DNA of 64,000 bases from Escherichia phage ESCO5. Under the pieces are notes generated by a model that worked only from the letters and a program-made list of their open reading frames with translations, was not told where the DNA came from and did not search any database. Where the stretch lies: sequence record NC_047776.2; one strand, written 5' to 3'. Positions 11,735-40,753 of this stretch are shown here, piece by piece. Both the position numbers and the translations under genes were made by a program. Positions within the stretch are counted from its first letter, which is position 1, and each line of letters starts with the position of its first letter.

Positions 11735-11738
11735 TTTT

Positions 11739-13697: not shown

Positions 13698-13706
13698 TTA
13701 ATAGAT

Positions 13707-14019: not shown

Positions 14020-14057
14020 TGTGTCTCACAGGTGAATAATACCGAACAGGAGGAAGA

Positions 14058-14273: not shown

Positions 14274-14286
14274 TCCAGGAGAAAAT

Positions 14287-14505: not shown

Positions 14506-14507
14506 TA

Positions 14508-14705
14508 ATGGCGAAAATGTTGGAAATTGATAATGTCGTAACAATCACTACGTCCATACCTTGTCCTCCTATGCCTTGCCCCTATTGTGGTGGTGCAGGA
14601 TATGTTATGGCGGACGTAGGTCAAATTTACGAGTGCAACCCGTGCAAAACCACAGGTTATATCCAAATAGAATCAGAGGAGAAACACTATGAGCCAAAAC
14701 GCTAA
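14508..14705 (+). CDS. Cys-rich small protein (zinc-ribbon-like)
   Basis: ORF; CPYCGG...CNPCK motif. Confidence 0.4.
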   Translation: MAKMLEIDNVVTITTSIPCPPMPCPYCGGAGYVMADVGQIYECNPCKTTGYIQIESEEKHYEPKR

Positions 14706-15138: not shown

Positions 15139-15302
15139 TGCAAGTAGGTGATGTGGTTTGCCTTAAAGGTGCAAACAAACAAATGACAGTAATAGAAAGT
15201 TATGGTGAATCTTGTAAAGTAACTTGGTTCGATGAAAACGGGGAATTGCAACACGCCATATTCGATCAAAAAGCTTTGAGGAAGGTTGAAGAAAAAGAAT
15301 GA
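15135..15302 (+). CDS. Hypothetical small protein (55 aa)
   Basis: ORF below the track cutoff; ATGA overlaps at both ends; SD AAAGGA. Confidence 0.4.
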   Translation: MMQVGDVVCLKGANKQMTVIESYGESCKVTWFDENGELQHAIFDQKALRKVEEKE

Positions 15303-15562
15303 GCCATCCGTCAATATTTTTCTGTTTTGTAGATCTTGAAAACGAGTCTTTAATCGTTGATAGTGAGGGTTACTTCACTTATTGGGAATCCGAGCACGAA
15401 ACTATAAGTGTAGTGAAAGAAATTATGCAAACCAATCCAAGCCTACCAGCGCATAAGTACGGTATTGCAAAAGTGTTTGTTACTAAAACAGAGTACACAA
15501 AAGAGCGAAGCACTTTGTACCATAATATTGAAGTGATTCACTATTTCAAAGATGTTATTTAG
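15299..15562 (+). CDS. Hypothetical protein
   Basis: ORF overlapping the upstream stop. Confidence 0.45.
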   Translation: MSHPSIFFCFVDLENESLIVDSEGYFTYWESEHETISVVKEIMQTNPSLPAHKYGIAKVFVTKTEYTKERSTLYHNIEVIHYFKDVI

Positions 15563-15570
15563 GAGGTTAT

Positions 15571-16179
15571 ATGGAAGAGAAGATTTGGGATGGTAAAGAT
15601 CCTTTAGAAGTTGGACACGTAGCGCGTGTCAAAAAATCTACTACAGGTCCTGGTTTTTCTGGTTTGTATCATATACCAGAAGAAGGTCAGCACGTTACAA
15701 TTTTGGCTCGTGACAAACAAAACGGAGCAACGCCTGTGTGGATTGTTCGTTGGTATGACAAAGATCTTAACATTTGCTTGTCACCTATTATGGCTCATTT
15801 GCTGGAAGCCCCTTGCTCTGAAGAAGCTCTAATTTTTGTTTCGGCTTTTCAGAAAGCCACAGGTTTAACATTAGATGCAAAAGATGTGCAAAAAGCATTT
15901 GACATTATTCAGGAAGACAACGATACTACATCTAACGACGAACTGGTTGAAGTTACAATCTTATCTTCAGCAGATATCCGAGAGATTGATAATTGTGATT
16001 TTCCAATCACATTTAAAATGTCGCAGAAAGACATGCAGTCATCTGGAAGTTGTTTTGGTATACCTCGTTGGTTTTTTGATTCTATCAAAAATTCTACTAC
16101 AGAGGGATCAGACTATGATCAAGATGACGTGCTTTGGTTCTTAAAAAACCGAGAGATTGTTCTCTCACCACTTAAATAA
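15571..16179 (+). CDS. Hypothetical protein
   Basis: ORF with SD TAGGAGG upstream. Confidence 0.5.
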   Translation: MEEKIWDGKDPLEVGHVARVKKSTTGPGFSGLYHIPEEGQHVTILARDKQNGATPVWIVRWYDKDLNICLSPIMAHLLEAPCSEEALIFVSAFQKATGLTLDAKDVQKAFDIIQEDNDTTSNDELVEVTILSSADIREIDNCDFPITFKMSQKDMQSSGSCFGIPRWFFDSIKNSTTEGSDYDQDDVLWFLKNREIVLSPLK

Positions 16180-16188
16180 GGAGAAATA

Positions 16189-16290
16189 ATGGTTTCATTT
16201 ATCGTAGGTGTAGTTGTAGGCTATCTTATTAACAAATATCAAGACGTTATCACGGCAAAAGTAAAAGACATTTTAGACTCATCTAAATAA
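16189..16290 (+). CDS. Hydrophobic peptide (33 aa)
   Basis: Short ORF with SD AAGGAGA; single hydrophobic helix. Confidence 0.3.
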   Translation: MVSFIVGVVVGYLINKYQDVITAKVKDILDSSK

Positions 16291-16342
16291 TCTATCAAAG
16301 CTGCATCTTCAATAGGTGCAGCCTTTTAAAAGGAGATATGGC

Positions 16343-16516
16343 ATGACTAAACGCACTGATTTTAAATGTATGCATTGTGGGAAATCTTTTGGGGATCATC
16401 AAGCTCGCACATTCAACTGTCCACGTAAAGGTCGCGGAAATTTTAAAGGTTTTAATCCCGCACATGTTTATTCTCCAGATTACGATAAGCCAGAAGAAGA
16501 AAAATTTGTTATTTAA
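16343..16516 (+). CDS. Small Cys-containing protein
   Basis: ORF; ATG at 16343 after AAAGGAGA; CMHCGK...CPRKG. Confidence 0.4.
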   Translation: MTKRTDFKCMHCGKSFGDHQARTFNCPRKGRGNFKGFNPAHVYSPDYDKPEEEKFVI

Positions 16517-16528
16517 TAAGGAGGTCAT

Positions 16529-16810
16529 ATGGAACTCGTTCAAGAATTGTATAATGCTTTAGGAGCAAAAGGAAAAGATTGGCCCGAACATGCGCTTATT
16601 GCTATAAGAGACTCCGATGGTGAGATTAAGTTTTCAAGCGTAAGTAAAGAGCACATCGTAGAAACAAAACTGGGTATTTACATGCGTGGAACTTATTGCT
16701 TATTCAACACCAGAATGGTAGAAGCCCCTGTTATCGAGGATGGAACAAAAGATTGCCCCACAATCGTAACAAAATCTGAATATGAGAAGTTTTTCTACGC
16801 TAAGGCTTGA
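16529..16810 (+). CDS. Hypothetical protein
   Basis: ORF with SD AAGGAGG upstream. Confidence 0.5.
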   Translation: MELVQELYNALGAKGKDWPEHALIAIRDSDGEIKFSSVSKEHIVETKLGIYMRGTYCLFNTRMVEAPVIEDGTKDCPTIVTKSEYEKFFYAKA

Positions 16811-16854
16811 CACAGAAACAATACTATAGGATAGTGATCCTATCGTAGCAATAG

Positions 16855-16876
16855 AACCCGCTTCGGCGGGTTTTTT
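16855..16876 (+). terminator. Rho-independent terminator (CCCGC-TTCG-GCGGG followed by a T6 run)
   Basis: GC stem with UUCG tetraloop and T-run read from the sequence. Confidence 0.7.
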
Positions 16877-16901
16877 CATATCTGTAGCAATAGGAGGTCG
16901 T

Positions 16902-17132
16902 GTGTTAAATAAAATCGAAGAAGGTTGTATGGCATTTTTGGTAGATAACCCGTTTCCCTTTATGGTTAAGGTCCATGTAGGAGAGTATTTAGGTTATGAC
17001 GAATGGGATTGTAGTATCAATAGTGAAATGCACCACTACCAACCAACAATACTTAAGACGGATCAAATGGCGCGTATTACAGTAGAGGATGAATTGATCA
17101 TTGAGTTATACGAGAGAGCACTACACAAGTAA
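16902..17132 (+). CDS. Hypothetical protein
   Basis: ORF; GTG start at 16902 after TAGGAGG, alternative ATG at 16929. Confidence 0.4.
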   Translation: MLNKIEEGCMAFLVDNPFPFMVKVHVGEYLGYDEWDCSINSEMHHYQPTILKTDQMARITVEDELIIELYERALHK

Positions 17133-17173
17133 GCTAGAACCCACCTAAATCGAACAGAGACGCTCTAAAATAG

Positions 17174-17205
17174 AAAAGGCACCCACTTGGGTGCCTTTGT
17201 TTTAT
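17174..17205. terminator. Bidirectional terminator at the convergence point of the plus and minus blocks
   Basis: GGCACCC-ACTT-GGGTGCC hairpin flanked by an A-run upstream and a T-run downstream. Confidence 0.65.
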
Positions 17206-17474
17206 TCTTCGTTAGATTGCGTTTCAGACGCGTTAAATTCGGTTTCAGTGCAACTTGCTAGGTAACTTATGTTTCGCATCACTACAACTACAGGTGTTTG
17301 AAGTTTATCTTCTAGCCCAGCAGCCACTTGAGCCAAGGCATTATCAATATTTGATTTCCTAACACCTGTTCCATGCCCTGTTGCCAAGTAAAGATTACCT
17401 TCCCCTTTTTGTGTAGCATTAGCAAAGTAGTAAACGTAATGTGCAAGGTAGTAATCACGGATTTCTTCAGTCAT
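17202..17474 (-). CDS. Hypothetical protein
   Basis: ORF with SD AGGAG upstream. Confidence 0.45.
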   Translation of the reverse strand: MTEEIRDYYLAHYVYYFANATQKGEGNLYLATGHGTGVRKSNIDNALAQVAAGLEDKLQTPVVVVMRNISYLASCTETEFNASETQSNEE

Positions 17475-17485
17475 TTTGTTCTCCT

Positions 17486-17508
17486 AATAAGAAAGGGGCC
17501 GAAGCCCC
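17486..17508 (-). terminator. GGGGC-UUCG-GCCCC hairpin (terminator or processing site)
   Basis: Identical hairpin recurs at 29551-29564 and 36043-36056. Confidence 0.5.
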
Positions 17509-17517
17509 TTGAGTGGT

Positions 17518-18318
17518 TTATTTGTTTAAATGGTCTTCAACCATTTTGATAAAGCCTTCATCACTGAAGACTGTCCCTGCTTTCTCTCGGTAGACAAGCA
17601 CTCCACGTTCTTCGTAGAGAGTTTGTTCTACAAAATTCAAACCTGGGTTAACTACAACCATCTTAACCCCAATATTCAGGGCAGGGAAAAGTTCCCAATT
17701 GAAGTTGATAACTTGATTAGAGCAGCCCACAACGATAACCATGTCTTGAGCAGTTAGCGTGTCGAGGATTTGGTACATGTCGGTGTAGAACGGAGCATTT
17801 TCACCAAAAAACACCACGTTAGGTTTCACGTACTTGTAATCATCTACATCAATAGCAGCATAACCTACATCTTTGATGATTCGATTGTCTACAATCACTT
17901 CAGGCAGGAAGCCGTGAACATGCAGAACATCTTCATGAACAACACCTGCTTGTTCCAGAAGATCATCTACGTTTGTTGTGATGTTGATAACACGTTCACA
18001 ACCGTACTCTTGGAACCATTCCGCGATCTGGTAATGCGCAGCGTTAGGAGACACGCTATCCATCTCTACGCGACGTTTATTGTAGAAGTCGTGAGTTTTA
18101 CGGTAGAGGTTGTATCCCTCTGCATCTAATCCGCCAACAGCCCCAGGAACACACTGTTCTTGTTGGTATCCAGCACGGAAGTTGAAAATGTCGCATACTT
18201 CAGAGAGGTCATATTCGTCCCACAAAGCTTTACCGCTTGTGGTATCGGTGCGGAAAGTACGTACACCACTATCGGCGCTTAGACCAGCGCCGCTGATCAC
18301 TATTAATCGTCTTGGCAT
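17518..18318 (-). CDS. Sir2-family NAD-dependent deacetylase / ADP-ribosyltransferase-like protein
   Basis: GAGLSADSGVRTFR, TTNVDDL, HG and FFGE motifs typical of sirtuins. Confidence 0.6.
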   Translation of the reverse strand: MPRRLIVISGAGLSADSGVRTFRTDTTSGKALWDEYDLSEVCDIFNFRAGYQQEQCVPGAVGGLDAEGYNLYRKTHDFYNKRRVEMDSVSPNAAHYQIAEWFQEYGCERVINITTNVDDLLEQAGVVHEDVLHVHGFLPEVIVDNRIIKDVGYAAIDVDDYKYVKPNVVFFGENAPFYTDMYQILDTLTAQDMVIVVGCSNQVINFNWELFPALNIGVKMVVVNPGLNFVEQTLYEERGVLVYREKAGTVFSDEGFIKMVEDHLNK

Positions 18319-18803
18319 TCTTCCTCCTCATAATCATCATAATCTTCGTCATCCAAATCGTACACCTCGTCTTGAGAATAACTCACTTCAAAGTAAATAT
18401 CAAACTCTGCAAACAAACGTAGAATGTTGGACATGCTGTAATAGTTATCATAAGCTTCCTCTGCTTCATAGTAGAGGCGTAGCAAACGTTCAGCTTCTTC
18501 ATCTTCTACCCATTTATGATCGACATAGACAGAAGCAGCGTAGGTATTGTAGGCTTGTTCCCGACTATCGACAAGATTTCGGCTCAACAGTTCAGGGAAG
18601 TCCTTATAATTTACATTCAGTCTTCCGCATAACCACAAAGCAATATCATGCCAATCTGCATCCATACCACTAAAGCAACTTGCTTCTTCTCCAAAAGAAG
18701 CTTCTCCTAAATCGCCACTAATACGAACAACATTAGATGAATTATAGCCACACGTTTCACAATCAGAGTAACTATTATGCACATTGATATTTACTTGAAA
18801 CAT
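18303..18803 (-). CDS. Hypothetical protein with strongly acidic C-terminus
   Basis: ORF overlapping the Sir2-like gene by 16 nt; C-terminal D/E-rich tail. Confidence 0.45.
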   Translation of the reverse strand: MFQVNINVHNSYSDCETCGYNSSNVVRISGDLGEASFGEEASCFSGMDADWHDIALWLCGRLNVNYKDFPELLSRNLVDSREQAYNTYAASVYVDHKWVEDEEAERLLRLYYEAEEAYDNYYSMSNILRLFAEFDIYFEVSYSQDEVYDLDDEDYDDYEEEECQDD

Positions 18804-18861
18804 ATTCCCTCCTATAAAAGAAAAGCCCCCTGAAACAGGAGGCTTTGTTCAGATGTTGGCA

Positions 18862-19479
18862 CTATACCAGACTTTGTAGGTATTTGTCAAGGGCTTCTTG
18901 ATCACCTTGACAAACATAGCAACGGAAGTCTTGAGCAGAAGGTTCTTTGTCCTCGTCCCAATCCCAATAAACAGTACCTTTATAACGTGAGCCTGGGAAC
19001 TCGAAATATGCTGTATGAGTAATATGATGTGGGCCACCCCAAAACTGTGTAAAAGTAAATTGAGGATACGCTGCTTTAACTGTATTCTCAAACCAAGTTT
19101 TACGATCTAATGCTTCGTTTATAAAATAAGCATGGCGTTCCATTTCATCCCAGTCTTTCCAAACGCATTTTTCATCCAGAGAAAAAACAAAATCTTCACT
19201 GTTGAATTCATCTGTATCTTCCAAAATATCATAATCATGTGCACTAGGTATCCACCATCCAGCTTCTAATAGTGCTTTCACGGGTACAAAACCTTTTTCA
19301 GCATATTGATCAAATTCTTTTACTCTACGTACAGTGCAGTATTCATCTTCACCACCAATGTCCAGTAGACAAGCACCTTTGCGTCTTGCTGCAAGACCAT
19401 GTGTATCAAAAACTACAACACTACCTTCACCATCATTACGATCTACTTGATAAGCAACTACTGGTTTTGAATTTGACAT
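18862..19479 (-). CDS. Hypothetical protein
   Basis: 205-aa ORF. Confidence 0.5.
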   Translation of the reverse strand: MSNSKPVVAYQVDRNDGEGSVVVFDTHGLAARRKGACLLDIGGEDEYCTVRRVKEFDQYAEKGFVPVKALLEAGWWIPSAHDYDILEDTDEFNSEDFVFSLDEKCVWKDWDEMERHAYFINEALDRKTWFENTVKAAYPQFTFTQFWGGPHHITHTAYFEFPGSRYKGTVYWDWDEDKEPSAQDFRCYVCQGDQEALDKYLQSLV

Positions 19480-20162
19480 TATTTCTCCTTATCTAGAAGA
19501 TTGTTAGACAAAAACACTGCACGAGCAAAACCACGTGCGGTTAGTGATCTAAGTTGTTTTGTTTTTGCACTAGCTCCGCCTAAGCTTTTCCAACCCCAGA
19601 AGCAGCCTATATGATCTACTGGTTTCTTCACTGGTTGAACAAAGCCATTCCCGTGCCAAATACAAGTTTTCTTTGTATACCCATCACGGGTAGGCATTTT
19701 AGGATGAAAGCTTCCTTCTTCTTCAAACAAATACCCACCATACTCATAAGGATCAAAGTAAAAATCGGGTTTACGCCATAAGGTTGAAAGTTTACCTACT
19801 GGGTTCTCAATCATCCAAGGAACATTGTATTTGTTACCCAAAGCTTCCACTACACGAATATTAGCTAAAGCCTCATCTAATTCCTCTGTGCTGCGTTCGT
19901 GTTTGCTACCACTACCTGCTAACATAGTGCAAGGTGGAAATCCAAAAATAATATCGGGTTTAGGTATTCCATGATCTTCAGGGTTGAATGTAGAATCTAT
20001 CCAAGCATTCACATAGGTTATGTTTGGGTGCTCCATCCTAACCTCGTATTTACCGTGGTCCCCTTCATCAGCGTTTACACAAAAACACTTGTGACCTGCT
20101 TCGGCATAACGTAACACCATGATCCCAGATCCGTCAAACATAGACAAAACTGTTTTACTCAT
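19479..20162 (-). CDS. Cytosine-C5 methyltransferase-like protein (short)
   Basis: FDGSG (motif I-like), FPPCT (PC motif IV-like) and ENPVG (ENV-like); start taken at ATG 20162 after GGAGG. Confidence 0.45.
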   Translation of the reverse strand: MSKTVLSMFDGSGIMVLRYAEAGHKCFCVNADEGDHGKYEVRMEHPNITYVNAWIDSTFNPEDHGIPKPDIIFGFPPCTMLAGSGSKHERSTEELDEALANIRVVEALGNKYNVPWMIENPVGKLSTLWRKPDFYFDPYEYGGYLFEEEGSFHPKMPTRDGYTKKTCIWHGNGFVQPVKKPVDHIGCFWGWKSLGGASAKTKQLRSLTARGFARAVFLSNNLLDKEK

Positions 20163-20568
20163 TACCCCTCCATTCAAGACAAGCCATAACTTTACGCCAA
20201 TCACTTTCTGTAAGAAAAATCTCGTTTGCTTTCTTCCACAAATCTAGATCGTGAAGGGTTGGAATACGATATGTTAGTTCACAGAATCTATGTTCTTCTT
20301 CTGTAATATAACCAAAATGCAAAGCCACATCGTGAAACCAACACCAACCATGCATCTCTCGAACAACATGATCATGTTGAGACATTATTTTATGCCGTAA
20401 ACCTAACCAACAAGGAACAGATACTTTAGTAGTCTTTAATCTGTGATCAACAGTATTAGAGTATTCAATAATAGCTGTCAATTTCAATCGTGCTTTTTCT
20501 AAATCCTCATGCGTCACTTTGAAATAACTTTCTGAAAGATATCCACACATATTAATAACCTCCTTCAA
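20155..20568 (-). CDS. Hypothetical protein
   Basis: 137-aa ORF. Confidence 0.45.
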   Translation of the reverse strand: MKEVINMCGYLSESYFKVTHEDLEKARLKLTAIIEYSNTVDHRLKTTKVSVPCWLGLRHKIMSQHDHVVREMHGWCWFHDVALHFGYITEEEHRFCELTYRIPTLHDLDLWKKANEIFLTESDWRKVMACLEWRGNE

Positions 20569-21493
20569 AAGGCTTAACTACATGTTGATTAGCTTTAAAA
20601 CGTTCAACATAGTCGTTTTCACCCATGTTTTCATATAGCTTAATAACAACATAAAAGTTTTCCCAAGCATATTCCCTAAACCAACCACTAGTGATGGATG
20701 TGCAGACTTTAGATAAAGCCATTATAAAACTTTGCTTAGGGGTTGGACCTCCGATCTCTCCACCGAAAGGAATTTGTGAACGTTCCAAAGCCAAAACACA
20801 CGCTTCTTCATAAACACCTAACAGGCGCACATGTTTTGGTTGAGCAAAAAACTTTTCTTTGCTGGTCATAACTTCACTTCCATCTTTCATATAAGATTTA
20901 TATGCTGGAGCATCCATTACTGCGATTGCTTCATGAATAGAGTCATGATCATAAACATACGGAACCTCATCACCTTTAAAGAAATCTTTACTTCTCACGT
21001 TTAAGTTTGGATGAGAGTAAGTGTATGTTTCTTTCTCACGCAACTCATAAACACTCTTAAAATTTTCTGGGATCTTTGCGCCTAGTGATCGCATGAAATG
21101 AATATCTTTCATAGTTTTAAAGAAGTGAGGACTATCCTTTTTAAAACGATGACTCATTTTAAGAAGGTAGAGCACATCTAAAGGAGCAACAACGTGTCCA
21201 GCGTAAGTTCGACGAATATCATCAGAGTCTTCACAATAACTAATCAAAGCTTCTGTGCTATCTCCTTGAGAAGCAATATCGTATTCCAAATGTGCACCAG
21301 CTATCATTTTGACATGGCCCTTGTTCCCTTTACGCTCTACAAGTTCAACAAACTCATCTTGAGAGAACATTTTTGATAATTTTTCCCATTCTTGTTCTGT
21401 ACAGAGGTAATCTAAATCTACACAAGGGCGATACAAGTCTTTTCCCATATCCATAGCATGAATTTGTAATGCACGGCTACCGATTAACACCAT
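20552..21493 (-). CDS. Hypothetical protein (313 aa)
   Basis: ORF; weak GS...DLD pattern only, no confident family assignment. Confidence 0.5.
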   Translation of the reverse strand: MVLIGSRALQIHAMDMGKDLYRPCVDLDYLCTEQEWEKLSKMFSQDEFVELVERKGNKGHVKMIAGAHLEYDIASQGDSTEALISYCEDSDDIRRTYAGHVVAPLDVLYLLKMSHRFKKDSPHFFKTMKDIHFMRSLGAKIPENFKSVYELREKETYTYSHPNLNVRSKDFFKGDEVPYVYDHDSIHEAIAVMDAPAYKSYMKDGSEVMTSKEKFFAQPKHVRLLGVYEEACVLALERSQIPFGGEIGGPTPKQSFIMALSKVCTSITSGWFREYAWENFYVVIKLYENMGENDYVERFKANQHVVKPFEGGY

Positions 21494-25293: not shown

Positions 25294-25884
25294 TCAAATT
25301 ATTAACGAAACCGCATGACTAAATCTTGGTTCAGATATAACCTCTGCTACAGTCACATATGTATCGTGCAGCCAAAAAGATTCTACTCTACAAACACAAA
25401 TACCGTTGATAATGAAATCTACACAGGATTTATTATTTTCGCACACCTGTTGACTATAAACAACCCCTAAAGAGTCATAAAGTGATCTCACTGTTGCTAC
25501 CATTTCATCTGTTTCGTCTTCCTGTGAAACAAAGAAAACGAATACAGACAAGTTATTAGCGAAAGTATTGCTATTCTCTACTTCAACCGACTTACAAGGT
25601 AAAAAGGAGTAATATTTACCATTAGGTATCAATTTCGCCTCAACCTGGTTAAGTATGCTTTGAGATGGTTTTGTTACATAAAAAAGATTTTCTGTTGGGT
25701 TTTCAACATTACTCCTTACTATGCAACGAGTGGGGTTCGAAGGATCAAAAACATGATCGAAATCGACACACACAGGTAAGTTAACAACTTTAAACTTTTT
25801 GCTAAGAATGCTTACTGCTGTAAAAATCAAACCAGCATTTATTTTGCCAGTGAAAGTTGAACGCATAACTACTCCTCGGATCAT
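25294..25884 (-). CDS. Hypothetical protein
   Basis: 196-aa ORF. Confidence 0.45.
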   Translation of the reverse strand: MIRGVVMRSTFTGKINAGLIFTAVSILSKKFKVVNLPVCVDFDHVFDPSNPTRCIVRSNVENPTENLFYVTKPSQSILNQVEAKLIPNGKYYSFLPCKSVEVENSNTFANNLSVFVFFVSQEDETDEMVATVRSLYDSLGVVYSQQVCENNKSCVDFIINGICVCRVESFWLHDTYVTVAEVISEPRFSHAVSLII

Positions 25885-27545: not shown

Positions 27546-28238
27546 TTAAATAGCGGTTCCTTCGAAATCCGCCACATTTACGAGATTAATATTTTCAGAT
27601 TTAGAAGTCAAGTTGTTTTCTGCAACAGATTTTTCTTCAGTATCCGCCTCGTTACCTGCCACGTTACGAGGTTCTTCTTCACCGTAGGGATTACCGAATT
27701 TCAAAAGATTGATCAATTCTTCTTTGGAGAAGTTTTCTAAATCATCATCTGTTAATTCAATAATCTCGTCTTGTTCTTCAATAAATGTTTCACCACCAGA
27801 AAAAGCATCTCGCTTTTTAGCTACTTCCATAGCCTGTTCTGGTGTTGCCCCTGCATCAAGAGCAGCTAAAGCAAAGTCTGACCCGCTTCCTACCGCATAA
27901 TATTCTTCATCAATCGGATATGCACGTGTTGGGTTATTACCTTCGTGCAGGAAAATACGTCCGTCTGGATGAACAACAAGTGCAATAAACTCTTCATCTT
28001 CTTTATCTGGATCAGAGTGAATCATCAAACCAGGGACAGCATCACGTGCTGCTTCGCACTGTAGATTTTGTTCAAACCATTGAAAGAAAGAAAGCACGGA
28101 GGTCAGACGACCAGCACCACCTACAAGGTAATCTCCAATTTTTCGGACCTTTTTGAAATTAATAGAATCTACACGTCCACCAAAAGTTACCTTACCGTCA
28201 CTCAAAATCTTATTTTTGGTTGCAATAATTGTCGTCAC
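27546..28238 (-). CDS. HslV-like N-terminal-threonine peptidase with acidic C-terminal extension
   Basis: MTTIIATKN start, KKVRK, GGAG and GSG motifs aligning with bacterial HslV. Confidence 0.55.
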   Translation of the reverse strand: MTTIIATKNKILSDGKVTFGGRVDSINFKKVRKIGDYLVGGAGRLTSVLSFFQWFEQNLQCEAARDAVPGLMIHSDPDKEDEEFIALVVHPDGRIFLHEGNNPTRAYPIDEEYYAVGSGSDFALAALDAGATPEQAMEVAKKRDAFSGGETFIEEQDEIIELTDDDLENFSKEELINLLKFGNPYGEEEPRNVAGNEADTEEKSVAENNLTSKSENINLVNVADFEGTAI

Positions 28239-28741
28239 TATTCTTCCTCCTCTGTTAATGTTTTAAGAACCGCTTTCCCGCCATTCACATATTTGCAGAT
28301 GTATTCTATCGCACGTAGTGTCTCTTTGTCAACAAAAATTTGATCAGACGTTGCGAGCGGGTTATTAAGAAGATCACTACAATCACGAACAAGCAGTGCT
28401 TTCTTATTAAACAAATTACTTAAGAACAGTAACTTCGCCTCTTCTTCTGTTATGTGCAGAAGGCTAGGATCGGAGCCAGCTATTCCTATTATACAATCAA
28501 ACAAGCTTTCTTTACTATCAGAAAGTTCTTGAAAATGGTTTAAAAGCCAATCTTCTCCTAGACACCAACATTTAAACATTTCCAGTTTATCTCGGAGGGT
28601 CATATTCTCTAAAGTAAGAGCAATCTCTTTTTCAATATGGTTTACACAAATTTGACGAAATTCGTTAGGTTTTACGAGTCCCGTTTGATAGCACTCATCT
28701 ATACCGCTTCTTCCGATAGCTATTGTTGCTACACCCATCAA
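28238..28741 (-). CDS. Hypothetical protein
   Basis: 167-aa ORF. Confidence 0.45.
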   Translation of the reverse strand: MMGVATIAIGRSGIDECYQTGLVKPNEFRQICVNHIEKEIALTLENMTLRDKLEMFKCWCLGEDWLLNHFQELSDSKESLFDCIIGIAGSDPSLLHITEEEAKLLFLSNLFNKKALLVRDCSDLLNNPLATSDQIFVDKETLRAIEYICKYVNGGKAVLKTLTEEEE

Positions 28742-30232: not shown

Positions 30233-30493
30233 TTACTCCGCAATTTGAGCCATGAGATCACGCAGTTCGGTAAAACCGCCTACGTATGTTACCTCCCCGT
30301 TCACTTCAGACAGAATTTGTGGAAATGTGCGTGGAGGAACTCCGGTAAGATCAACAACTGTTTTAGTCATTGATTCTAAATCATAGTCTTGGCCAAGACT
30401 TAAATATTCAAACTGTTTATTGCGCATAGTCAATAGTTGTTTTGACATTTCACAAAATTGACAGTTAGGTTTACCAAAAATTACAAATTCCAT
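30233..30493 (-). CDS. Glutaredoxin (T4 NrdC-like)
   Basis: CQFC active site and C-terminal TFPQI...GGFTELRDL resembling T4 glutaredoxin. Confidence 0.75.
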   Translation of the reverse strand: MEFVIFGKPNCQFCEMSKQLLTMRNKQFEYLSLGQDYDLESMTKTVVDLTGVPPRTFPQILSEVNGEVTYVGGFTELRDLMAQIAE

Positions 30494-31335
30494 TACCTCT
30501 CCTTATTAAGTAATACTGCTAAAGACTGTTCAATACCTTTATTTAAATCTGATTTTGTAAGATAGTGACTGGTTACTAGTTGTGACTTCACCGGACGTGC
30601 TGCTGGAGCATTATAGGTTGAAGCTGATACCGCCGATATCTTAACAGGTTCTGGCATCTGTGTCAAGATCTTTTCCGCAAACTCCGCCCAAGAAATAAGA
30701 TGGCTTCCTGCAAAATGGTAAGTCTTAACAGACCTTGACCAACCTGTTTTTAATACTTCAAAAATAGCTTCTGCTAAATCTGGAGCATATGTTGGACAAG
30801 AGAACTGATCAGCAACAATAATAAAATCACGTTGTCCATCATTATAGCGAGACAACATAGTTTTTAGAAAGTTATTTCCAAATTCGCTATATACCGAGGC
30901 TGTTCGAATAATATATGCATTTGGGTTAACTCCTCGCACCATTTTTTCACCAAGTTTTTTCGTATACCCATAATTGTTTATTGGGTTAGGTGCAGTATCT
31001 TCAAAAATAGGATGAGAATAATTAAAAATATAGTCTGTAGAAATATGCACAAAATCAATTTTAAGTTTGCTGCACACTGCCGCAATATTTGCAGGTCCAT
31101 ATGCATTAACAGCCAAAGCAGTAGCAAAATCATGTTCTGCTTTATCTACAGCCGTATAAGCGGCGCAATTAATAACACCATCTACATAATCTTCAACAAT
31201 AGCGTTTCGCACAGCTTCAAAATTTGTAATATCTACACGTTCTTTAGGATAAATTAAAGATACATTTGAAGGAACCACTTTACGTAAAGCTTGTCCCAGT
31301 TGTCCATTACCACCCAATACCAGATATGTTAGCAT
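30493..31335 (-). CDS. rmlD: dTDP-4-dehydrorhamnose reductase
   Basis: NCAAYTAVDKAE, STDYIF, YGYTK and DQF.CPTYA motifs characteristic of RmlD. Confidence 0.85.
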   Translation of the reverse strand: MLTYLVLGGNGQLGQALRKVVPSNVSLIYPKERVDITNFEAVRNAIVEDYVDGVINCAAYTAVDKAEHDFATALAVNAYGPANIAAVCSKLKIDFVHISTDYIFNYSHPIFEDTAPNPINNYGYTKKLGEKMVRGVNPNAYIIRTASVYSEFGNNFLKTMLSRYNDGQRDFIIVADQFSCPTYAPDLAEAIFEVLKTGWSRSVKTYHFAGSHLISWAEFAEKILTQMPEPVKISAVSASTYNAPAARPVKSQLVTSHYLTKSDLNKGIEQSLAVLLNKER

Positions 31336-31895
31336 ACACCCTCGCTACGTAACTGTTGAAAAGATTTAGCCATTGCATCTTTTGTTGATAAAATAGGTTT
31401 AAAACCTTCGTCAAAAATCATATCGAAGCCCCAATCGATACCTATGTCAGGATCATCCCAACGTAAACTTTGTTCACTAGAAGGGTCGTATGGAGTTGTG
31501 CATTTGTATTCAAAGATCGCATCCATACTCAAAACTATAAAACCATGTGCCAAACCAGGAGGAAGCCAAAACTGCGTATGGTGTCGTGCACGAAGAACAA
31601 CACCGTCCCAAGCACCGTAAGTTGGACTATCTTTACGTAAATCTACAGCGAAATCCAATACTTCTCCACTTACACAACGAACAAGCTTACCTTGCGGATT
31701 ATTTGTTTGAAAGTGCATTCCTCGCAAAACACCGAAGTTTGATTTAGACATATTATCTTGAACGAAAGTTTGCTTACCAATGATATCTTCGTATTTTTGT
31801 TCATTGTATGTTTCTAAAAAGAAACCACGGTCGTCTTTATAAACGTCTGGTTTGATAATTACCGCACCTTCAATTTTTGTTTTTTCTACTTTCAT
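31329..31895 (-). CDS. rmlC: dTDP-4-dehydrorhamnose 3,5-epimerase
   Basis: DDRGFF, FVQDN.S and GVLRGMHFQ motifs of RmlC; start at ATG 31895 (4-nt overlap with rmlA stop) rather than the longer track ORF. Confidence 0.85.
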
Positions 31896-32770
31896 TTTCC
31901 CTCCGCTAATTTGAGTAGGTATTGCCCGTACTCTGTTTTCTTCAGTGAGTTTCCATGGTAGACCAAAGTCTCTAAAGAAATCCACCCTTTTTTGAAAGCA
32001 ATTTCTTCCAGGCACGCAATCTTCAATCCTTGACAGTTCTCAATAGTCTGCACGAATTGACCAGCTTCCATCAGACTGGCGTGTGTTCCTGTGTCAAGCC
32101 AAGTAAATCCTCGTCCGAGAACTTCCACTTGTAACTTCCTGTCTTCGAGGTAGCTGCGATTGATATCAGTGATCTCCAGTTCTCCACGCGCGGAAGGGGT
32201 TACTTCTAATGCACGTTGAATAACAGAGTTATCATAGAAATACAAACCTGTGACAGCATAATCTGATTTAGGATTTTCAGGTTTCTCTTCAATAGAAATA
32301 ACTTGACGATTACTCCCAAATTCAACCACACCGAATCGTTCAGGATCTTTCACCAAACACCCGAAGATACAAGCTCCGCCCCAAACATCTACCATCTCAC
32401 TAGCGTCAATCAGTAGTTTACCAAAGCTTTGTCCGAAGAATAGGTTGTCACCTAAAATAAGAGCAACAGAGTCTTCTCCGATAAAATCTTTACCGATGAT
32501 GAAAGCGTCCGCAAGACCTCGTGGCTTGGATTGGATTGCGTAAGTGAGTTTTATCCCAAACATAGACCCATCTCCAAGAAGATACTCAAAGTCTTCCTGA
32601 TCGCCTGGTGTGGTGATGATTAAGATATCCTTAATGTCAGCCAACATCAATACCGATAAAGGGTAGTAGATCATGGGTTTGTCATACACAGGGAGCAATT
32701 GCTTGCTCACACTGCGTGTTACCGGATGAAGGCGGGTTCCACTTCCTCCCGCCAAAATAATACCTTTCAT
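31892..32770 (-). CDS. rmlA: Glucose-1-phosphate thymidylyltransferase
   Basis: [19 protein letters not shown]-terminus and overall RmlA pattern. Confidence 0.9.
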
Positions 32771-32778
32771 AACCCTCC

Positions 32779-33771
32779 TTAAATCTTCTCACTCCACCAT
32801 TGAGGGTTGTTTAAGTACCATTCAATCGTTGAGTAGAGATCTTGTTCAAATGTAGAGTTTGCACTCCAACCCAGTTCAGACTCTATTTTAGAAGGATTGA
32901 TTTCATAACGCAAGTCATGTCCTTTACGATCTTCAACAAAAGTTATCAAGTTGGAAGAAGGGTAGGTTCCTGCTTCTGGATGTACAGCATCTATGTAGTC
33001 ACAAACCATATAGATGATCTCCATATTGGTTTTGGGATTACGTGTTCCAACATTATACGTTTGACCTGGTTCTCCACCTGTTGCCACTTGAAGAATAGCT
33101 CGCGCATGATCCTCAACAAAAAGCCAGTCTCGCACCTGATCGCCTTTACCATACACCGGAATCTCTTTATTCGTCAAGATACTTGTGATGATTTTTGGGA
33201 TCAGCTTTTCTGGATGTTGATAAGGTCCAAAGTTATTGGAGCAGTTGGTTATCACAACAGGTAAACCGTAGGTACGGTACCAAGCTTTCACAAGATGGTC
33301 AGATGCTGCCTTAGACGCACTGTACGGGCTTGAAGGGGCATAAGCTGTCTCTTCGGTAAAGGGAACGCCAGAGTCTGCCATATCGCCGTACACTTCGTCT
33401 GTGGAGACATGTACGAACATCTTAAGTTTATTTTTTGGGAGGAGCCTTGCAGCTTCCAATAAATTGTATGTACCAATAATATTGGAGTCGATGAAAACTC
33501 GTGGATTCTTGATAGAATTATCCACATGACTCTCTGCCGCTAAGTGAATGATGAAATCGGGATTGCACTCTACTACTAAACTTTTGACCTGGGTTTCGTT
33601 TGCCAAATCTGTTATGCTCAGTTTAACGTGAGTGATATCGCCTACATTCTCAATATCTGCTGCATAGCCCATCTTATCAACGACAAAAACTTCGTTATTG
33701 GGATCTTGACAAAGAGAGCGCACCACGGCACTCCCAATAAAACCAAGACCACCTGTTACCAGATAGCGCAT
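32779..33771 (-). CDS. rmlB: dTDP-glucose 4,6-dehydratase
   Basis: [11 protein letters not shown]-binding motif, YSASKA catalytic motif, size 330 aa. Confidence 0.9.
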
Positions 33772-33780
33772 CAGTTCTCC

Positions 33781-34107
33781 TTACCAGACATGTTGAGAAA
33801 TAATAGTTTCCGTTTTAATGTTATATTTTTCAAGTAGCTTTGCATAGGCTTCTTTTGCATTCTCATTCAATTGCTCAAGATCTACAGCTATGCTTCCTTC
33901 TCCTCCTTCTAAATCAAGGCCATATATGCAATAAGACTCATCCGCATCGTAGAAAGGAGAGATGCGGCTTAAGTCAAGACCTTCTTGTAAGAACCAGTTA
34001 AAATCTCCGTCAAATTCTTCTTCAATTCTAGGATCTTCTCCTACAGCCTCTTCCCACTTATTTAAAGGTGCACCCTGTAACATACGCCATTCGATATCAA
34101 TACCCAT
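33781..34107 (-). CDS. Hypothetical acidic protein
   Basis: 108-aa ORF. Confidence 0.45.
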   Translation of the reverse strand: MGIDIEWRMLQGAPLNKWEEAVGEDPRIEEEFDGDFNWFLQEGLDLSRISPFYDADESYCIYGLDLEGGEGSIAVDLEQLNENAKEAYAKLLEKYNIKTETIISQHVW

Positions 34108-34403: not shown

Positions 34404-34612
34404 TATTCCTCCTTAATTATTTCAAACTTGGCAACACCATTTACAATAATATGACCACAAGACATAACTCCTAGCCAAGGATCGCCGTTTTTCTTCAGGC
34501 GTTTACCGAATACATCACAAAAACCATTCTTCATTTCAGAGGCTTCATAAGAAGCCCCTTTATCAAAAACGTCTTTGAATGTGTCGATTATACCAACACA
34601 TTTCAAAATCAT
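34403..34612 (-). CDS. Hypothetical protein
   Basis: 69-aa ORF. Confidence 0.4.
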   Translation of the reverse strand: MILKCVGIIDTFKDVFDKGASYEASEMKNGFCDVFGKRLKKNGDPWLGVMSCGHIIVNGVAKFEIIKEE

Positions 34613-35697
34613 TCGAAGTCAAGCTCCTCATCATCAGAGAGATCTTTGTTAGCTGAATTCAATTTGTAGTTAGTTAACTGAATCTCTTGGGCTGCTGACT
34701 GAATCAAATCAGGATTCAACCATTTTTCCATCCAAGCTAAAGGGCTATGTTTAGGTGCTTTAAACTTGGCTTTCATTTTCAATCGACGATAAATAGGAGC
34801 AGCATTGAAATAAACCCACTGTTTAGACAATTCGGCGTTAAGACCTACAATAAAACGACCTTCACTAAACAGGTAGTCACACCACTGTTCCTCTTGTTCA
34901 ACAACAGTGTCGAGGATCAAAGTCAACTCTTCAATATTGTCTTCGTAAATTTTACGCCAAATTGGGTCATGCATCAATGCATCAATTACAGCATAATCCA
35001 TCTTAACATGCAAGATTTCATCTAGCATAATTTTCTGGATCAGTTTACAAGCTCCAACAAACAGTTGTTGTTCTGCCATAGCAAAAGTAGCAGAGAAGGA
35101 AGATATAAACTGAATACCTTCTAACCCAATCAGGGCTACCATCCCTTTAAGAATCAGCAGTCGAAGTTCATCGTTAGCTTCAATCAATCCTAGAGCATAC
35201 TTATGACCAGCTTCTTCCAACTGACCCATGATATCAGCAATGATACCCATACGATTGAAAATTTTATCATTAATCATAATCTGATTGATGACTTCAATTG
35301 GATCTGGAGTACATTGACGGATTATTTCAGAATACGTTAACGCATGGAGAACTTCCATTTCACTCTGCTTCATCATCATAGCACAGGCTTCATTGTTACT
35401 CAAGAATGGAGAGAACAAAGTGATGATTGATTTTGCAAGAGAATCATTTTCCCATTGGAACGATAAGTTTTTAATCATAACATCATAGTTGTTTTTAGAA
35501 CAAGCTACGAAATCTTTACGTGTCTGATCCAAGTTAACTTCGTTTTCATCCCAATCTTGTGCTTTTTGAAGTTTGTAGAGTTTGTGCATTTCTGGATAAG
35601 TCACGTTAACAGAATCAAAGATCCCTAATTGCTCCCCCAAAAATACTGGATATTTCCCTGTCTTGTAAACTTCGTTGTGTAAATTAATTGCTGCCAT
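34609..35697 (-). CDS. nrdB: Ribonucleotide reductase class Ia beta subunit
   Basis: Di-iron ligand pattern (E..H in EMEVLHALTYSE) and typical size 362 aa. Confidence 0.9.
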   Translation of the reverse strand: MAAINLHNEVYKTGKYPVFLGEQLGIFDSVNVTYPEMHKLYKLQKAQDWDENEVNLDQTRKDFVACSKNNYDVMIKNLSFQWENDSLAKSIITLFSPFLSNNEACAMMMKQSEMEVLHALTYSEIIRQCTPDPIEVINQIMINDKIFNRMGIIADIMGQLEEAGHKYALGLIEANDELRLLILKGMVALIGLEGIQFISSFSATFAMAEQQLFVGACKLIQKIMLDEILHVKMDYAVIDALMHDPIWRKIYEDNIEELTLILDTVVEQEEQWCDYLFSEGRFIVGLNAELSKQWVYFNAAPIYRRLKMKAKFKAPKHSPLAWMEKWLNPDLIQSAAQEIQLTNYKLNSANKDLSDDEELDFE

Positions 35698-36063: not shown

Positions 36064-36723
36064 TTAGCCTCGGAATACTGTTTTTGTTTCTGCCAGATTG
36101 TAATAGAAATCCGACTTGTTTACAAGTGTTTTGTAAACATCCTTACAAAAATGATCTTCCTGTTTGTAACGTTCCGCTGTCTCTTTGATGGACTTGGCTT
36201 TATCCTTAAGCCAAGCAAAATGTGCTTCTTCTTCTGTTGCAAAGTATCCTAAATGTTTGCTCTTGCTACCAGAAGCTTTGGCATAAATTTTACCATCTCC
36301 TTTCCTGACGTGCGCTCCCAGTAAATACTTCCTTTCTGTTCTCTTTGAGAAACTCAAAAGGGTATTCACATACGGAGGAACAAATCTACAATATTCAGGG
36401 CAGTATACAGTATTACCTTCCAGAACAAGGTCTTTGTCTAAAACAAAACCTTCGACATTATGTTCTTGATACCAGGTATCAAAATTTGAGAAAGTAAACC
36501 AAGAATCACACACAGTAGTAAACTCATAACCAGGACGTGTGTCCTTCATTTTATAAGCCCTATCAAACATGTTCCTCCACGCTGCATAAGAAGGATCTAT
36601 GAAAGTGTTTACTCTCTTCCCATTAATGGTTCCCCCTTCCCACAGTCTACGATCTACGTCCACAATCAAGGGGATTTCTCCCCTCTCTGTGAGAACGGTA
36701 ACTTTACGTTTACCCTTCTTCAT
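36064..36723 (-). CDS. Homing-endonuclease-like protein with AP2-type DNA-binding domain (paralog of 53002-53607)
   Basis: C-terminal HLGYFATEEEAHFAW AP2-like motif; W..M..R, CD.W..FSNF and LDKD motifs shared with the ORF at 53002. Confidence 0.55.
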   Translation of the reverse strand: MKKGKRKVTVLTERGEIPLIVDVDRRLWEGGTINGKRVNTFIDPSYAAWRNMFDRAYKMKDTRPGYEFTTVCDSWFTFSNFDTWYQEHNVEGFVLDKDLVLEGNTVYCPEYCRFVPPYVNTLLSFSKRTERKYLLGAHVRKGDGKIYAKASGSKSKHLGYFATEEEAHFAWLKDKAKSIKETAERYKQEDHFCKDVYKTLVNKSDFYYNLAETKTVFRG

Positions 36724-39754: not shown

Positions 39755-40753
39755 TCACCATTTAGTATGATTTGTTAAAAGTTGACGATGTTGAATCCAA
39801 CCTTTGAAATTGCCAGACCAAAACTTACCATTACGATCTACATGGGTAATACCTGGTTCCCAAGAGTTAAAATCCCAGGGAGCATTGATAAACAAATCTT
39901 CAAAACAGTTCTCTCCGTATTGTTCGCATGTTTCTTGCATTGGGGTGGCTTGATGTTCAAACGGAGAAGCATGAACCTTACGCCCAGTCAGCAAACGACC
40001 ATAGATATCTAAAGCTTTATCTTTAGTTGCATTCAAACGACGATAGCTAACCTGTGCACAACACGAAGCTGAAATAGCTTTGGCTTCTTCCAAAGTAAGC
40101 ACAACAACTTCTCCAGATTCATCTTGAACATAGTATCCACCAAAAACAAAATGATCGTCACCTTCTGTGCCAATATTATCATAGAAATGGTCTACATAAG
40201 GTGTGTGCCATTGCCCTGGTTTCAGCACTTCTGGTGTAGATTCTTCATACTCTTTGTGCATCTCTTTAGCCAAAGCTTCGATAGTAGGATCGGCTTCTTT
40301 GTCATCACGTAGCCACCAGAAATTTTCATATTCTGTTGCTGTCAGAACTGTTTTAATTCGTTGGAAAGGTTCCAGAAGACGGTTTGCAACTTGTTTGTGG
40401 TACCCTGCCAAAGAGAATTCTTCTGCAAAACGTGCTGCACTAAGCGCGGCAAGATCCCACCACTCTTGAGCAGTATAACCTGCATCAATAAGAGCATCAT
40501 GGTCAACACCTTTGTCCTGCATACCAGGTTGGTTAGCCCCAAAACGATAAGGACGAGCAGGCTGATTTCGCACCATTTCGATCAGTGTTTTAACAGGTAT
40601 AGCACGGCTAGAAGCAGCGTTACGACTGAACAGGCGGTGAGTCATCAGTTCTGAATGAATAATACGTGGATATTCAAGTTCGAAAGTTACAATCTCTTTT
40701 CCGTCTTCAGTGATGGAATGTGCAATAATACTAGCCGAAATCTGTTTTGTCAT
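39755..40753 (-). CDS. ThyX-like (flavin-dependent thymidylate synthase family) protein, divergent and C-terminally extended
   Basis: THRLFSRNAASSR aligns with the ThyX RHR..S.N..S.R signature; 332 aa is longer than typical ThyX. Confidence 0.55.
   Translation of the reverse strand: MTKQISASIIAHSITEDGKEIVTFELEYPRIIHSELMTHRLFSRNAASSRAIPVKTLIEMVRNQPARPYRFGANQPGMQDKGVDHDALIDAGYTAQEWWDLAALSAARFAEEFSLAGYHKQVANRLLEPFQRIKTVLTATEYENFWWLRDDKEADPTIEALAKEMHKEYEESTPEVLKPGQWHTPYVDHFYDNIGTEGDDHFVFGGYYVQDESGEVVVLTLEEAKAISASCCAQVSYRRLNATKDKALDIYGRLLTGRKVHASPFEHQATPMQETCEQYGENCFEDLFINAPWDFNSWEPGITHVDRNGKFWSGNFKGWIQHRQLLTNHTKW

Follow-up and report, generated by a model that had tools for sequence, protein, structure and literature searches.

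The genome analyzed here (a window of 64,000 nucleotides of Escherichia phage ESCO5, NC_047776.2) carries four genes that are best explained as an intact set for a predicted working dTDP-L-rhamnose pathway, and the same phage group carries a module of four glycosyltransferase genes about 75 kb away. We propose, with a probability of about 0.4, that pathway and module together build a glycan on an acceptor other than DNA, most likely on virion proteins. The cassette itself has been annotated in GenBank since phAPEC8 (2012), and the observation of the gene set, being catalogued already, adds nothing new. It was termed "peculiar" by Olsen et al. 2020 (PMC7552041), where the idea of DNA glycosylation was proposed, and this idea was repeated in PMC10844046; on rhamnose or glycosyltransferase experiments in these phages, the searchable literature gives annotation-level remarks and the DNA hypothesis only. 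In searchable papers we found no link between the cassette and the four-glycosyltransferase module or the variants that lack rmlA and rmlB. The module, its contexts in temperate phages, and these variants are the additions of the present analysis.

All four enzymes of dTDP-L-rhamnose biosynthesis scored above the curated cut-offs of the NCBIfam equivalog models and aligned over essentially their full length (profile coverage of at least 91% for each of RmlB, RmlA, RmlC, and RmlD), and the Pfam assignments were consistent with these matches. On the minus strand, rmlB (32779..33771, dTDP-glucose 4,6-dehydratase, 330 aa) had 428 bits against TIGR01181 (cut-off 365.1, residues 2-327 aligned), rmlA (31892..32770, glucose-1-phosphate thymidylyltransferase, 292 aa) had 459.5 bits against TIGR01207 (cut-off 360.65, residues 2-289 aligned), rmlC (31329..31895, dTDP-4-dehydrorhamnose 3,5-epimerase, 188 aa) had 225.3 bits against TIGR01221 (cut-off 155.75), and rmlD (30493..31335, dTDP-4-dehydrorhamnose reductase, 280 aa) had 238.9 bits against TIGR01214 (cut-off 224.05). 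With a margin of only 15 bits, RmlD may make L-rhamnose or, as a Tll-type reductase, its C4 epimer 6-deoxy-L-talose. The residue roles in these enzymes were taken from the Salmonella enzymes. RmlB contains GxxGxxG, TDE, and YxxxK (YSASK), RmlA keeps the GGSGTRL motif, and RmlD has GxxGxxG, STDY, and YxxxK (YGYTK). Moreover, RmlC aligned to solved RmlC structures with E ~1e-55 and conserved RGMHFQ, GKLVR, YKCT, and WDDP segments, while among solved structures RmlD was closest to 3sc6 and 1vl0, the RmlD proteins of Bacillus anthracis and Clostridium, which share its STDY and YGYTK motifs. In these RmlC and RmlD alignments the segments with His, Lys, Tyr, and Asp are retained. The sequence-only reading had named the four enzymes from hallmark motifs, and equivalog scores, full-length alignment, and catalytic motifs bear this out.

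The genes are closely packed. The rmlA stop and the rmlC start overlap as ATGA (minus strand GGAGGGAAAATGAAAG at 31892-31895), which agrees with the translational coupling noticed earlier, and GGAGGG precedes the rmlC start. The longest open reading frame would place the rmlC start at position 32015 (GTG), whereas a protein of family length results from the ATG at 31895. In addition, rmlC and rmlD overlap by 7 nt (ATGCTAA), the last base of rmlD (30493) doubles as the first of the glutaredoxin gene, and inside the cassette neither a consensus terminator nor an obviously strong promoter stands out. Comparison of the cassette with phage EF1-1 gave pN/pS = 0.12, a sequence signature of purifying selection.

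The cassette lies among genes of nucleotide metabolism, as had been claimed from the letters alone and as profile matches and GenBank annotation confirm. Its downstream neighbor, outside the pathway, is an NrdC-like glutaredoxin gene (30233..30493, minus strand; PF00462, with matches to the GrxA and Grx3 families below cut-offs), a position likewise occupied by a glutaredoxin in phi92. The upstream boundary of the block is nrdB (34609..35697, minus strand), assigned from the identical GenBank record, where it is annotated, and from synteny with phi92. Other neighbors are an NT5C-like 5'-nucleotidase, which corresponds to the dNMP-phosphatase-like gene of the earlier reading, and a MazG/PRA-PH-like pyrophosphohydrolase; the thymidylate synthase of the window is ThyX-type (PF02511).

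The window belongs to a lytic Phapecoctavirus (phAPEC8 group) and is 100% identical to vB_EcoM_REC from about 9.1 kb on, while the first ~9 kb differ from REC. The cassette was found in 125 phage records, with 98-100% identity within Phapecoctavirus and 63-72% protein identity with identical synteny in Justusliebigvirus; the phi92 order grx-rmlD-rmlC-rmlA-rmlB...nrdB is the same as that of the window. These genes and their locus are shared with phAPEC8, phi92, and other Stephanstirmvirinae, the group to which the window belongs, and the cassette is best explained as a long resident of this lineage. The idea that it represents host DNA within a prophage region, or was recently acquired from E. 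coli, has homology to bacterial rfb/rml genes as its sole support, and we regard its probability as negligible. Across 5,426 complete E. coli genomes, no match reached 80% of the cassette (best match, 63.5% identity over 45%), the phage order is B-A-C-D whereas that of E. coli is rfbB-D-A-C (from genome feature lists and established knowledge), and lytic phages of two genera have the cassette at this locus. The RmlD homologues with 51-99% identity group as a phage clade, several members of which lie on ~113-157 kb contigs, and named cellular RmlD proteins are at most 44% identical to the phage protein. With the host rfb genes at only ~63% DNA identity, the E. coli genome comparison, the identity to REC, the phi92 synteny, and the RmlD clade effectively refute a host origin, and the set is a genuine phage-borne one, as the sequence-only reading supposed.

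Within the window, no glycosyltransferase was found with Pfam (most otherwise unassigned ORFs of at least 140 aa) or with PHROGs (the three proposed candidates and others), in agreement with the earlier remark that none was recognizable by eye. The three ORFs that had been put forward as candidates gave no glycosyltransferase signal: 25294-25884 matched phrog_4806, 28238-28741 matched phrog_14834 (function unknown), and 33781-34107, a 108-aa acidic protein, matched phrog_15453, all three without a Pfam match. The profile search, negative within the window, was positive in the REC record, where four tandem glycosyltransferase genes (REC_00265 to REC_00268) occupy 109875-113019, ~75 kb from the cassette, and match phrog_7162 (twice), phrog_2456, and phrog_14179. 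The module consists of two GT-B paralogues, one GT-A protein (DDD motif), and a small glycosyltransferase of no assigned class (DTD motif); structural models of GT1 and GT3 are predicted to be compact GT-B and GT-A domains, respectively. Searches of the GT1, GT3, and GT4 sequences against PDB chains returned nothing meaningful. The donor specificity of glycosyltransferases is not readable from sequence or fold. Among Escherichia phage records, RmlC was present in 104, GT1 in 105, and GT3 in 105, with 63 records each at identities of at least 95%; this co-occurrence is that of one subfamily and is confounded by shared ancestry, the two loci being ~75 kb apart. Outside the subfamily, the phage proteins nearest to GT3 are glycosyltransferases of cluster F mycobacteriophages (327 records, 25-28% identity, E ~1e-8), Che8 gp108 among them. 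With gp108 itself GT3 aligns only weakly (pairwise E 1e-3; 23% identity over 147 aa), and GT1, GT2, and GT4 had no detectable similarity to Che8 gp108-110.

Homologous modules and natural variants indicate how supply and transfer of the sugar may be connected. In a distant phage contig of 135 kb, an NDP-hexose 4,6-dehydratase-like gene lies within the module (order GT4, dehydratase, GT3, GT2), and because a 4,6-dehydratase is embedded in a homologous module, 6-deoxyhexose supply appears to be tied to these glycosyltransferases. GT3+GT2 modules also occur in temperate phages, each within a late region: between lysis and terminase in a Serratia prophage, between terminase and portal in a P22/Sf6-like contig, and between the Q antiterminator and holin in a lambdoid contig. 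About one third of the Phapecoctavirus records have rmlC and rmlD without rmlA and rmlB, and at identities of at least 95% RmlC was present in 63 records and RmlA in 46. The substrate of RmlC is already available in E. coli from two enzymes of enterobacterial common antigen (ECA) synthesis, RffH and RffG. In ESCO37 and Mt1B1_P17, rmlA and rmlB were lost together and rmlC and rmlD retained, a loss that PMC10269720 also supports. Since such variants keep rmlC and rmlD, the end product, not the consumption of dTTP, would be under selection.

We suggest that RmlA, RmlB, RmlC, and RmlD would in turn convert glucose-1-phosphate and dTTP into dTDP-L-rhamnose, which would free the phage from dependence on rhamnose synthesis by its E. 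coli host. This nucleotide sugar is the most likely donor for the module ~75 kb off, which may assemble a short rhamnose-containing glycan in the cytoplasm of the infected cell. The acceptor is probably not DNA, because GT3+GT2 modules are found in late regions of temperate phages, the thymidylate synthase is only of the ThyX type, and relatives are restriction-sensitive; most likely it would be at least one virion protein, giving a glycan coat as in Che8 and the chloroviruses. A virion acceptor is favored because the relatives of GT3 belong to cluster F, whose capsids are glycosylated according to PMC11256854 (citing Freeman et al. 2023). In the chlorovirus PBCV-1, soluble, early-expressed, virus-encoded rhamnosyltransferases act on the capsid protein (PMC9614988). 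The ends of the capsid, decoration, sheath, and tube proteins showed no striking Ser/Thr-rich or otherwise unusual features. A universal acceptor, for instance DNA or a lipid-linked glycan of the host, would suit a module that moves among phages whose capsids are unrelated at least equally well. The fuller claim, that Stephanstirmvirinae coat their own virions with a rhamnose glycan by means of a mobile GT-A + GT-B module that temperate enterobacterial phages also carry, is possible, with the odds clearly against it; if true, phages of Gram-negative bacteria would here for the first time be seen to encode their own virion glycosylation, together with the sugar-nucleotide supply for it.

Alternatively, on the cytoplasmic side of the inner membrane, the four glycosyltransferases might use the rhamnose to modify a host glycan that is linked to lipid, whether LPS core, capsule, or an O-antigen or ECA unit on undecaprenyl-PP, with superinfection exclusion, progeny that do not stick to debris or, in temperate relatives, serotype conversion as the purpose. 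GT1 is GT4-like, and many of its top structural neighbors, which include PglH/WlaC, PglA, PimA, WaaG, and WbnH, use lipid-linked acceptors; the module sits at classic 'moron' sites of temperate phages (Q-lysis and lysis-terminase), is common to phages with unrelated virions, as a host-wide acceptor would allow, and LPS core serves these phages as a receptor (PMC8594841). Gtr-family models, however, gave 0 matches to the four glycosyltransferases, the GtrA/GtrB/Gtr-specific seroconversion set is absent from the scanned window and unannotated in the genome of the relative EF1-1, and the EF1-1 annotation lists neither a flippase or ligase nor a membrane glycosyltransferase, Gtr-type or otherwise. 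Further, a short lytic cycle presumably renews little surface LPS, which leaves it doubtful that a strictly lytic phage of 150 kb would profit, and the nearest phage relatives of GT3 are a group known for virion glycosylation, so that we consider modification of the host envelope rather unlikely. A slim chance remains for a host protein or small molecule as the acceptor, as when EarP rhamnosylates EF-P, or for a cassette that mainly tunes the dTTP/sugar-nucleotide pool without the module. Such a role is consistent with the unlinked positions of cassette and module, with the placement of the cassette between glutaredoxin and ribonucleotide reductase genes, and with fold searches that show no acceptor, but the variants that keep rmlC and rmlD point to the end product, and the 4,6-dehydratase within a homologous module couples 6-deoxyhexose supply to the glycosyltransferases.

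In T4, glucose is attached to hydroxymethylcytosine, and a comparable hypermodification, with rhamnose alone or in an oligosaccharide on a modified base of the phage DNA, is the explanation already in print (PMC7552041, PMC10844046). It draws on the position of the cassette amid nucleotide-metabolism genes and on the module adjoining a primase/helicase, an N6-adenine methyltransferase, and a DNA polymerase, with adjacency to primase and PolA kept in distant relatives. GT3 also faintly resembles TAGT and the T-even beta-glucosyl-HMC alpha-glucosyltransferase PHROG (phrog_842, E 7.6e-6 over 39 residues); its score against TAGT PF20691 was 19.5 bits, below the cut-off of 27.5. Against DNA, no ThyA-like dCMP/dUMP hydroxymethylase was found in the window or annotated in the full genome of EF1-1, the sole thymidylate synthase being ThyX-type, and TET/JBP was absent both from most window ORFs of at least 140 aa by Pfam and from the EF1-1 whole-genome annotation, searches of low sensitivity for short or divergent proteins. 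PMC8594841 describes the phi92-like phages, in which these genes are also present, as 'exceptionally susceptible' to restriction-modification systems (a set that does not include Phapecoctavirus itself), and the module also occurs in lambdoid and P22-like temperate phages, none of them known to have glycosylated DNA. GT1, GT3, and GT4 are acidic (pI 5.6, 4.9, and 6.3), a weak proxy against DNA binding. We therefore hold DNA modification to be improbable, and of the three acceptors named by the sequence-only reading (DNA, virion proteins, and host envelope) hypermodified DNA is the least likely.

Compared with bacterial RmlA-D (Salmonella/E. coli rfb, Pseudomonas rmlBDAC), the phage cassette has the same four enzymes, family motifs, and predicted chemistry, but it is ordered B-A-C-D and lies between glutaredoxin and ribonucleotide reductase genes, not in a polysaccharide locus. 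Mycobacteriophage Che8 resembles our phage in having soluble phage-encoded glycosyltransferases in a small operon, and GT3 is a distant homologue of its gp108-type GT-A; the similarity is weak, however, Che8 does not encode a sugar-nucleotide pathway, and the phage here has a Gram-negative host and virions whose glycosylation is a prediction. The best functional analogues are the chloroviruses and mimivirus (PMC9614988), in which the virus encodes its rhamnose supply as well as soluble glycosyltransferases whose expression precedes that of the structural proteins, although theirs is UDP-L-rhamnose made by unrelated enzymes in eukaryotic hosts and their glycosyltransferases have no detectable orthology to those found here. 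In contrast to the systems of T-even hydroxymethylcytosine glucosylation or TAGT, no hydroxymethylase or TET was found for this phage, and its relatives are restriction-sensitive. To our knowledge, a dTDP-sugar donor for DNA is unprecedented.

Stephanstirmvirinae are common broad-host-range therapeutic coliphages, and these widespread phage-therapy candidates (phAPEC8-like and phi92-like) spend ~6.5 kb on rhamnose supply and four glycosyltransferases. If the virion is the target, antibody recognition, clearance, and stability of therapeutic phages would be affected, as shown for mycobacteriophages; if the host envelope is the target, a new kind of surface remodeling among lytic phages would be indicated; and DNA as the target would mean the first base modification from a dTDP-sugar. 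The natural variants without rmlA and rmlB and the module copies of temperate phages offer ready-made controls and comparison systems. We also observed that the 108-aa acidic protein encoded beside rmlB (33781..34107, minus strand, pI 4.06) is conserved, without a Pfam or NCBIfam match, and that it directly adjoins rmlC in the phages without rmlA and rmlB; the phi92 copy is gp069.

Four contiguous open reading frames on the minus strand (window 30493-33771) make up the rhamnose cassette and are transcribed in the order RmlB (32779-33771, 330 aa), RmlA (31892-32770, 292 aa), RmlC (31329-31895, 188 aa) and RmlD (30493-31335, 280 aa). All four translations scored above the curated NCBIfam equivalog cut-offs over nearly their full length (TIGR01181, 428 vs 365, for RmlB; TIGR01207, 459.5 vs 361, for RmlA; TIGR01221, 225 vs 156, for RmlC; TIGR01214, 239 vs 224, for RmlD), with concordant Pfam assignments. 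GGSGTRL was present in RmlA, GxxGxxG, TDE and YxxxK in RmlB, and STDY and YxxxK in RmlD, while RmlC and RmlD aligned to solved enzymes (E ~1e-55 and ~1e-44, respectively) with their catalytic segments kept. rmlA and rmlC do overlap at the ATGA pointed out in an earlier sequence-only reading, with GGAGGG just before it, and rmlC overlaps rmlD at ATGCTAA; in consensus scans of the cassette no internal terminator was convincing and no promoter stood out as strong. Equivalog scores, motifs, alignments and overlaps thus confirm the RmlB-A-C-D set proposed in that reading, and at the level of sequence the gene assignment is secure. Since RmlD lies only 15 bits above its cut-off, its product may, less probably, be 6-deoxy-L-talose instead of L-rhamnose. 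GC content over rmlB and rmlA (window 32001-34000) was slightly raised, 0.425 vs ~0.38 in the flanking windows, as would be expected if the genes were of foreign origin long ago or if these conserved enzymes are under constraint.

The 4-kb cassette region was matched in 125 phage records, being 100% identical to the lytic phage vB_EcoM_REC (REC, OM386667.1; Stephanstirmvirinae, Phapecoctavirus) and 97-99% identical to phAPEC8, ESCO13 and dozens more isolates. Between ~9.1 kb and 64 kb the window does not differ from REC by a single base; upstream it does differ, and positions 1-9100 best matched ESCO25 (97.8%). REC is a recombinant whose junction to the ESCO5 parent was placed at record position 11,573 (PMC10269720), and the break in identity at ~9.1 kb coincides with it, which makes it probable that the window is the ESCO5 parent. 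The cassette was absent from all 5,426 complete E. coli genomes searched, where the best match was the host's own rfbBDAC (63.5% identity, 45% query coverage). The same arrangement, grx-rmlD-rmlC-rmlA-rmlB-...-nrdB, was found in phi92 (Justusliebigvirus), so the cassette is older than the divergence of these genera. Homologues of RmlD formed a clade at 51-99% identity, several of them on contigs of ~113-157 kb, with an abrupt drop to at most 44% for named cellular RmlD proteins. Compared with the annotated relative EF1-1, the cassette had 30 synonymous and 13 non-synonymous differences (pN/pS 0.12). The cassette has long belonged to these phages and is under selection: its assignment to the phage holds, given the identity to REC, the phi92 synteny and the lack of any E. 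coli carrier, and a prophage-borne host cassette was ruled out by the 0/5,426 genomes, the phi92 synteny and the RmlD phage clade.

The cassette itself is already known, as GenBank annotates these four genes in phAPEC8, phi92 and many others. To Olsen et al. its location among the DNA-metabolism genes was "peculiar", and they proposed that hydroxymethylated nucleotides are glycosylated (PMC7552041); the BASEL paper wrote of "a putative dTDP glycosylation machinery" and found the same phages "exceptionally susceptible" to restriction-modification systems (PMC8594841), both points being repeated in PMC10844046. No experimental study of what the rhamnose cassette does in these phages emerged from our literature searches.

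In ESCO37 and Mt1B1_P17, rmlA and rmlB have been cleanly deleted and rmlC and rmlD kept (see also PMC10269720). At 95% identity or more, RmlC was present in 63 records and RmlA in 46 (some of them phiWec mosaics), and only 39 records covered at least 80% of the 4-kb query; these counts place the genotype without rmlA and rmlB in about one third of Phapecoctavirus records. In all E. coli, RffH and RffG are known to supply dTDP-4-keto-6-deoxyglucose for the synthesis of enterobacterial common antigen, and RmlC and RmlD are present in only some serotypes. With this host supply, keeping the last two steps is sensible if the phage needs dTDP-rhamnose, and makes no sense if the cassette merely consumes dTTP. 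The cassette of the phiWec phages (phiWec181, LC739534.1, 1-3127) is a mosaic, RmlA being 97% identical to the window's protein and RmlC only ~65%. The phiWec mosaicism, the deletion of rmlA and rmlB and the REC junction at that boundary suggest that the rmlC/rmlA boundary is a recombination hot spot.

The sequence-only reading recognised no glycosyltransferase in the window, and our profile searches (Pfam on most otherwise unassigned ORFs of at least 140 aa, PHROGs on several) agree. Its three candidate ORFs did not bear up, none matching a glycosyltransferase in Pfam or PHROGs: 25294-25884 fell in phrog_4806, 28238-28741 in phrog_14834 (unknown function) and 33781-34107, a 108-aa acidic protein, in phrog_15453. 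In the profile- and structure-based annotation of EF1-1 (98.8% identical), four glycosyltransferases follow one another at a site well away from the window; they correspond to the "hypothetical" REC_00265-00268 (here GT1-GT4; record 109,875-113,019) between primase/helicase and endolysin, in a stretch of REC reported identical to ESCO5 (PMC10269720). GT1 and GT2 (314 and 315 aa, 41% mutual identity) both matched phrog_7162 and, weakly, Glyco_trans_1_2; GT3 (227 aa, phrog_2456) has an invariant FDDD motif and GT4 (187 aa, phrog_14179) a DTD motif. Among 50,697 phage records, RmlC, GT1 and GT3 had a near-identical spread (104, 105 and 105 Escherichia phage matches; 63 records each at 95% identity or more and ~62-67 at 60-90%), which is suggestive of a link but is confounded by shared ancestry. 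On a distant phage contig of 135 kb the order is GT4, NDP-hexose 4,6-dehydratase-like SDR, GT3, GT2, primase, the SDR having TIGR01181 as its best match (171 bits, under the cut-off); the dehydratase-like gene inside this module physically ties 6-deoxyhexose chemistry to it in a second lineage.

As to what is glycosylated, DNA, virion proteins and the host envelope had been proposed, and we tentatively favour virion proteins (probability about 0.4). The closest phage relatives of GT3 outside the subfamily were cluster F mycobacteriophage glycosyltransferases (327 records, E ~1e-8; pairwise with Che8 gp108 weak, 23% identity, E 1e-3), and glycosylated capsids are mentioned for this group in a passage of PMC11256854 citing Freeman et al. 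2023. The chloroviruses, counted here for a virion acceptor, provide a precedent for virus-encoded rhamnosylation of a capsid, as the PBCV-1 capsid protein is decorated by soluble, early-expressed, virus-encoded rhamnosyltransferases (PMC9614988). A lipid-linked glycan of the host envelope is a rather unlikely acceptor, with many lipid-acceptor enzymes of the GT4 family among the neighbours of GT1 on its side, and a module moving between phages with unrelated capsids fits such a universal acceptor.

DNA turned out to be the least likely of the three and is quite improbable; some other acceptor is a slimmer prospect still. The sole thymidylate-synthase-like gene encodes a ThyX-like protein (39755-40753, minus strand) that is unusually long at 332 aa and aligned to the Thy1 profile at positions 59-191 only (E 1.6e-8), and neither the Pfam-scanned ORFs of the window nor the EF1-1 annotation yielded a ThyA-like hydroxymethylase or a TET/JBP dioxygenase, which argues against modified DNA. 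GT3 scored below the TAGT threshold (19.5 vs 27.5 bits) and matched the T-even beta-glucosyl-HMC alpha-glucosyltransferase PHROG over only ~39 residues of the nucleotide-binding region, and relatives with the same genes are restriction-sensitive (PMC8594841). Also against DNA, a core of GT3 and GT2, in some cases joined by GT4, reappears among the late genes of temperate phages of enterobacteria: it is flanked by the lysis cassette and the small terminase gene in a prophage of Serratia sp. M24T3, by the terminase and portal genes in a P22/Sf6-like contig, and by the Q antiterminator and the holin in a lambdoid contig. We know of no glycosylated DNA in these temperate phages, and the contexts are evidence that the glycosyltransferases belong to a mobile module that occurs in temperate-phage late operons. 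This module, the concrete transferase candidates outside the window, the second lineage joining such a module to a 4,6-dehydratase and the naturally occurring variants without rmlA and rmlB are what the present analysis adds, and they make the acceptor question directly testable.

The glycosyltransferase module and endolysin are followed immediately downstream by a conserved 'Ter' cluster (REC record 114342-125029; positions 10343-21030 of the segment L006) of TerD-like, vWA-TerF-like, TelA and TerC genes, then a phosphatase, a phosphoribosyltransferase and two hydrolases. It adjoins the module in metagenomic relatives too (L011 453-8061, L015 471-6172), and resembles Ter-associated systems for which a nucleoside-like metabolite has been predicted as the product. 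Possible defence or anti-defence genes follow one another at 17518-21493 (minus): a Sir2-family gene (PF02146), two unknowns, an annotated DNA methylase without Pfam match and a 313-aa DUF7277-DUF7275 protein. An HslV/proteasome-like peptidase (27546-28238, minus; PF00227 over a short stretch) is also seen in relatives, where its annotation reads 'peptidase HslV family', and in phi92, where it is given as a putative 20S proteasome. The early region of this strictly lytic phage contains a serine recombinase/resolvase (10017-10688, plus; PF00239, E 5e-18). HNH or AP2-domain homing-endonuclease-like ORFs lie at 36064-36723 and 53002-53607 (both minus), the former wedged between nrdB and nrdA and missing there in ESCO37 and Mt1B1_P17. 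The 'Campylobacter phage' records MG065650, MG065656 and MG065639 (B15, C3 and A150) were 99% identical to E. coli Phapecoctavirus/Justusliebigvirus and are probably mislabelled or contaminating coliphages.
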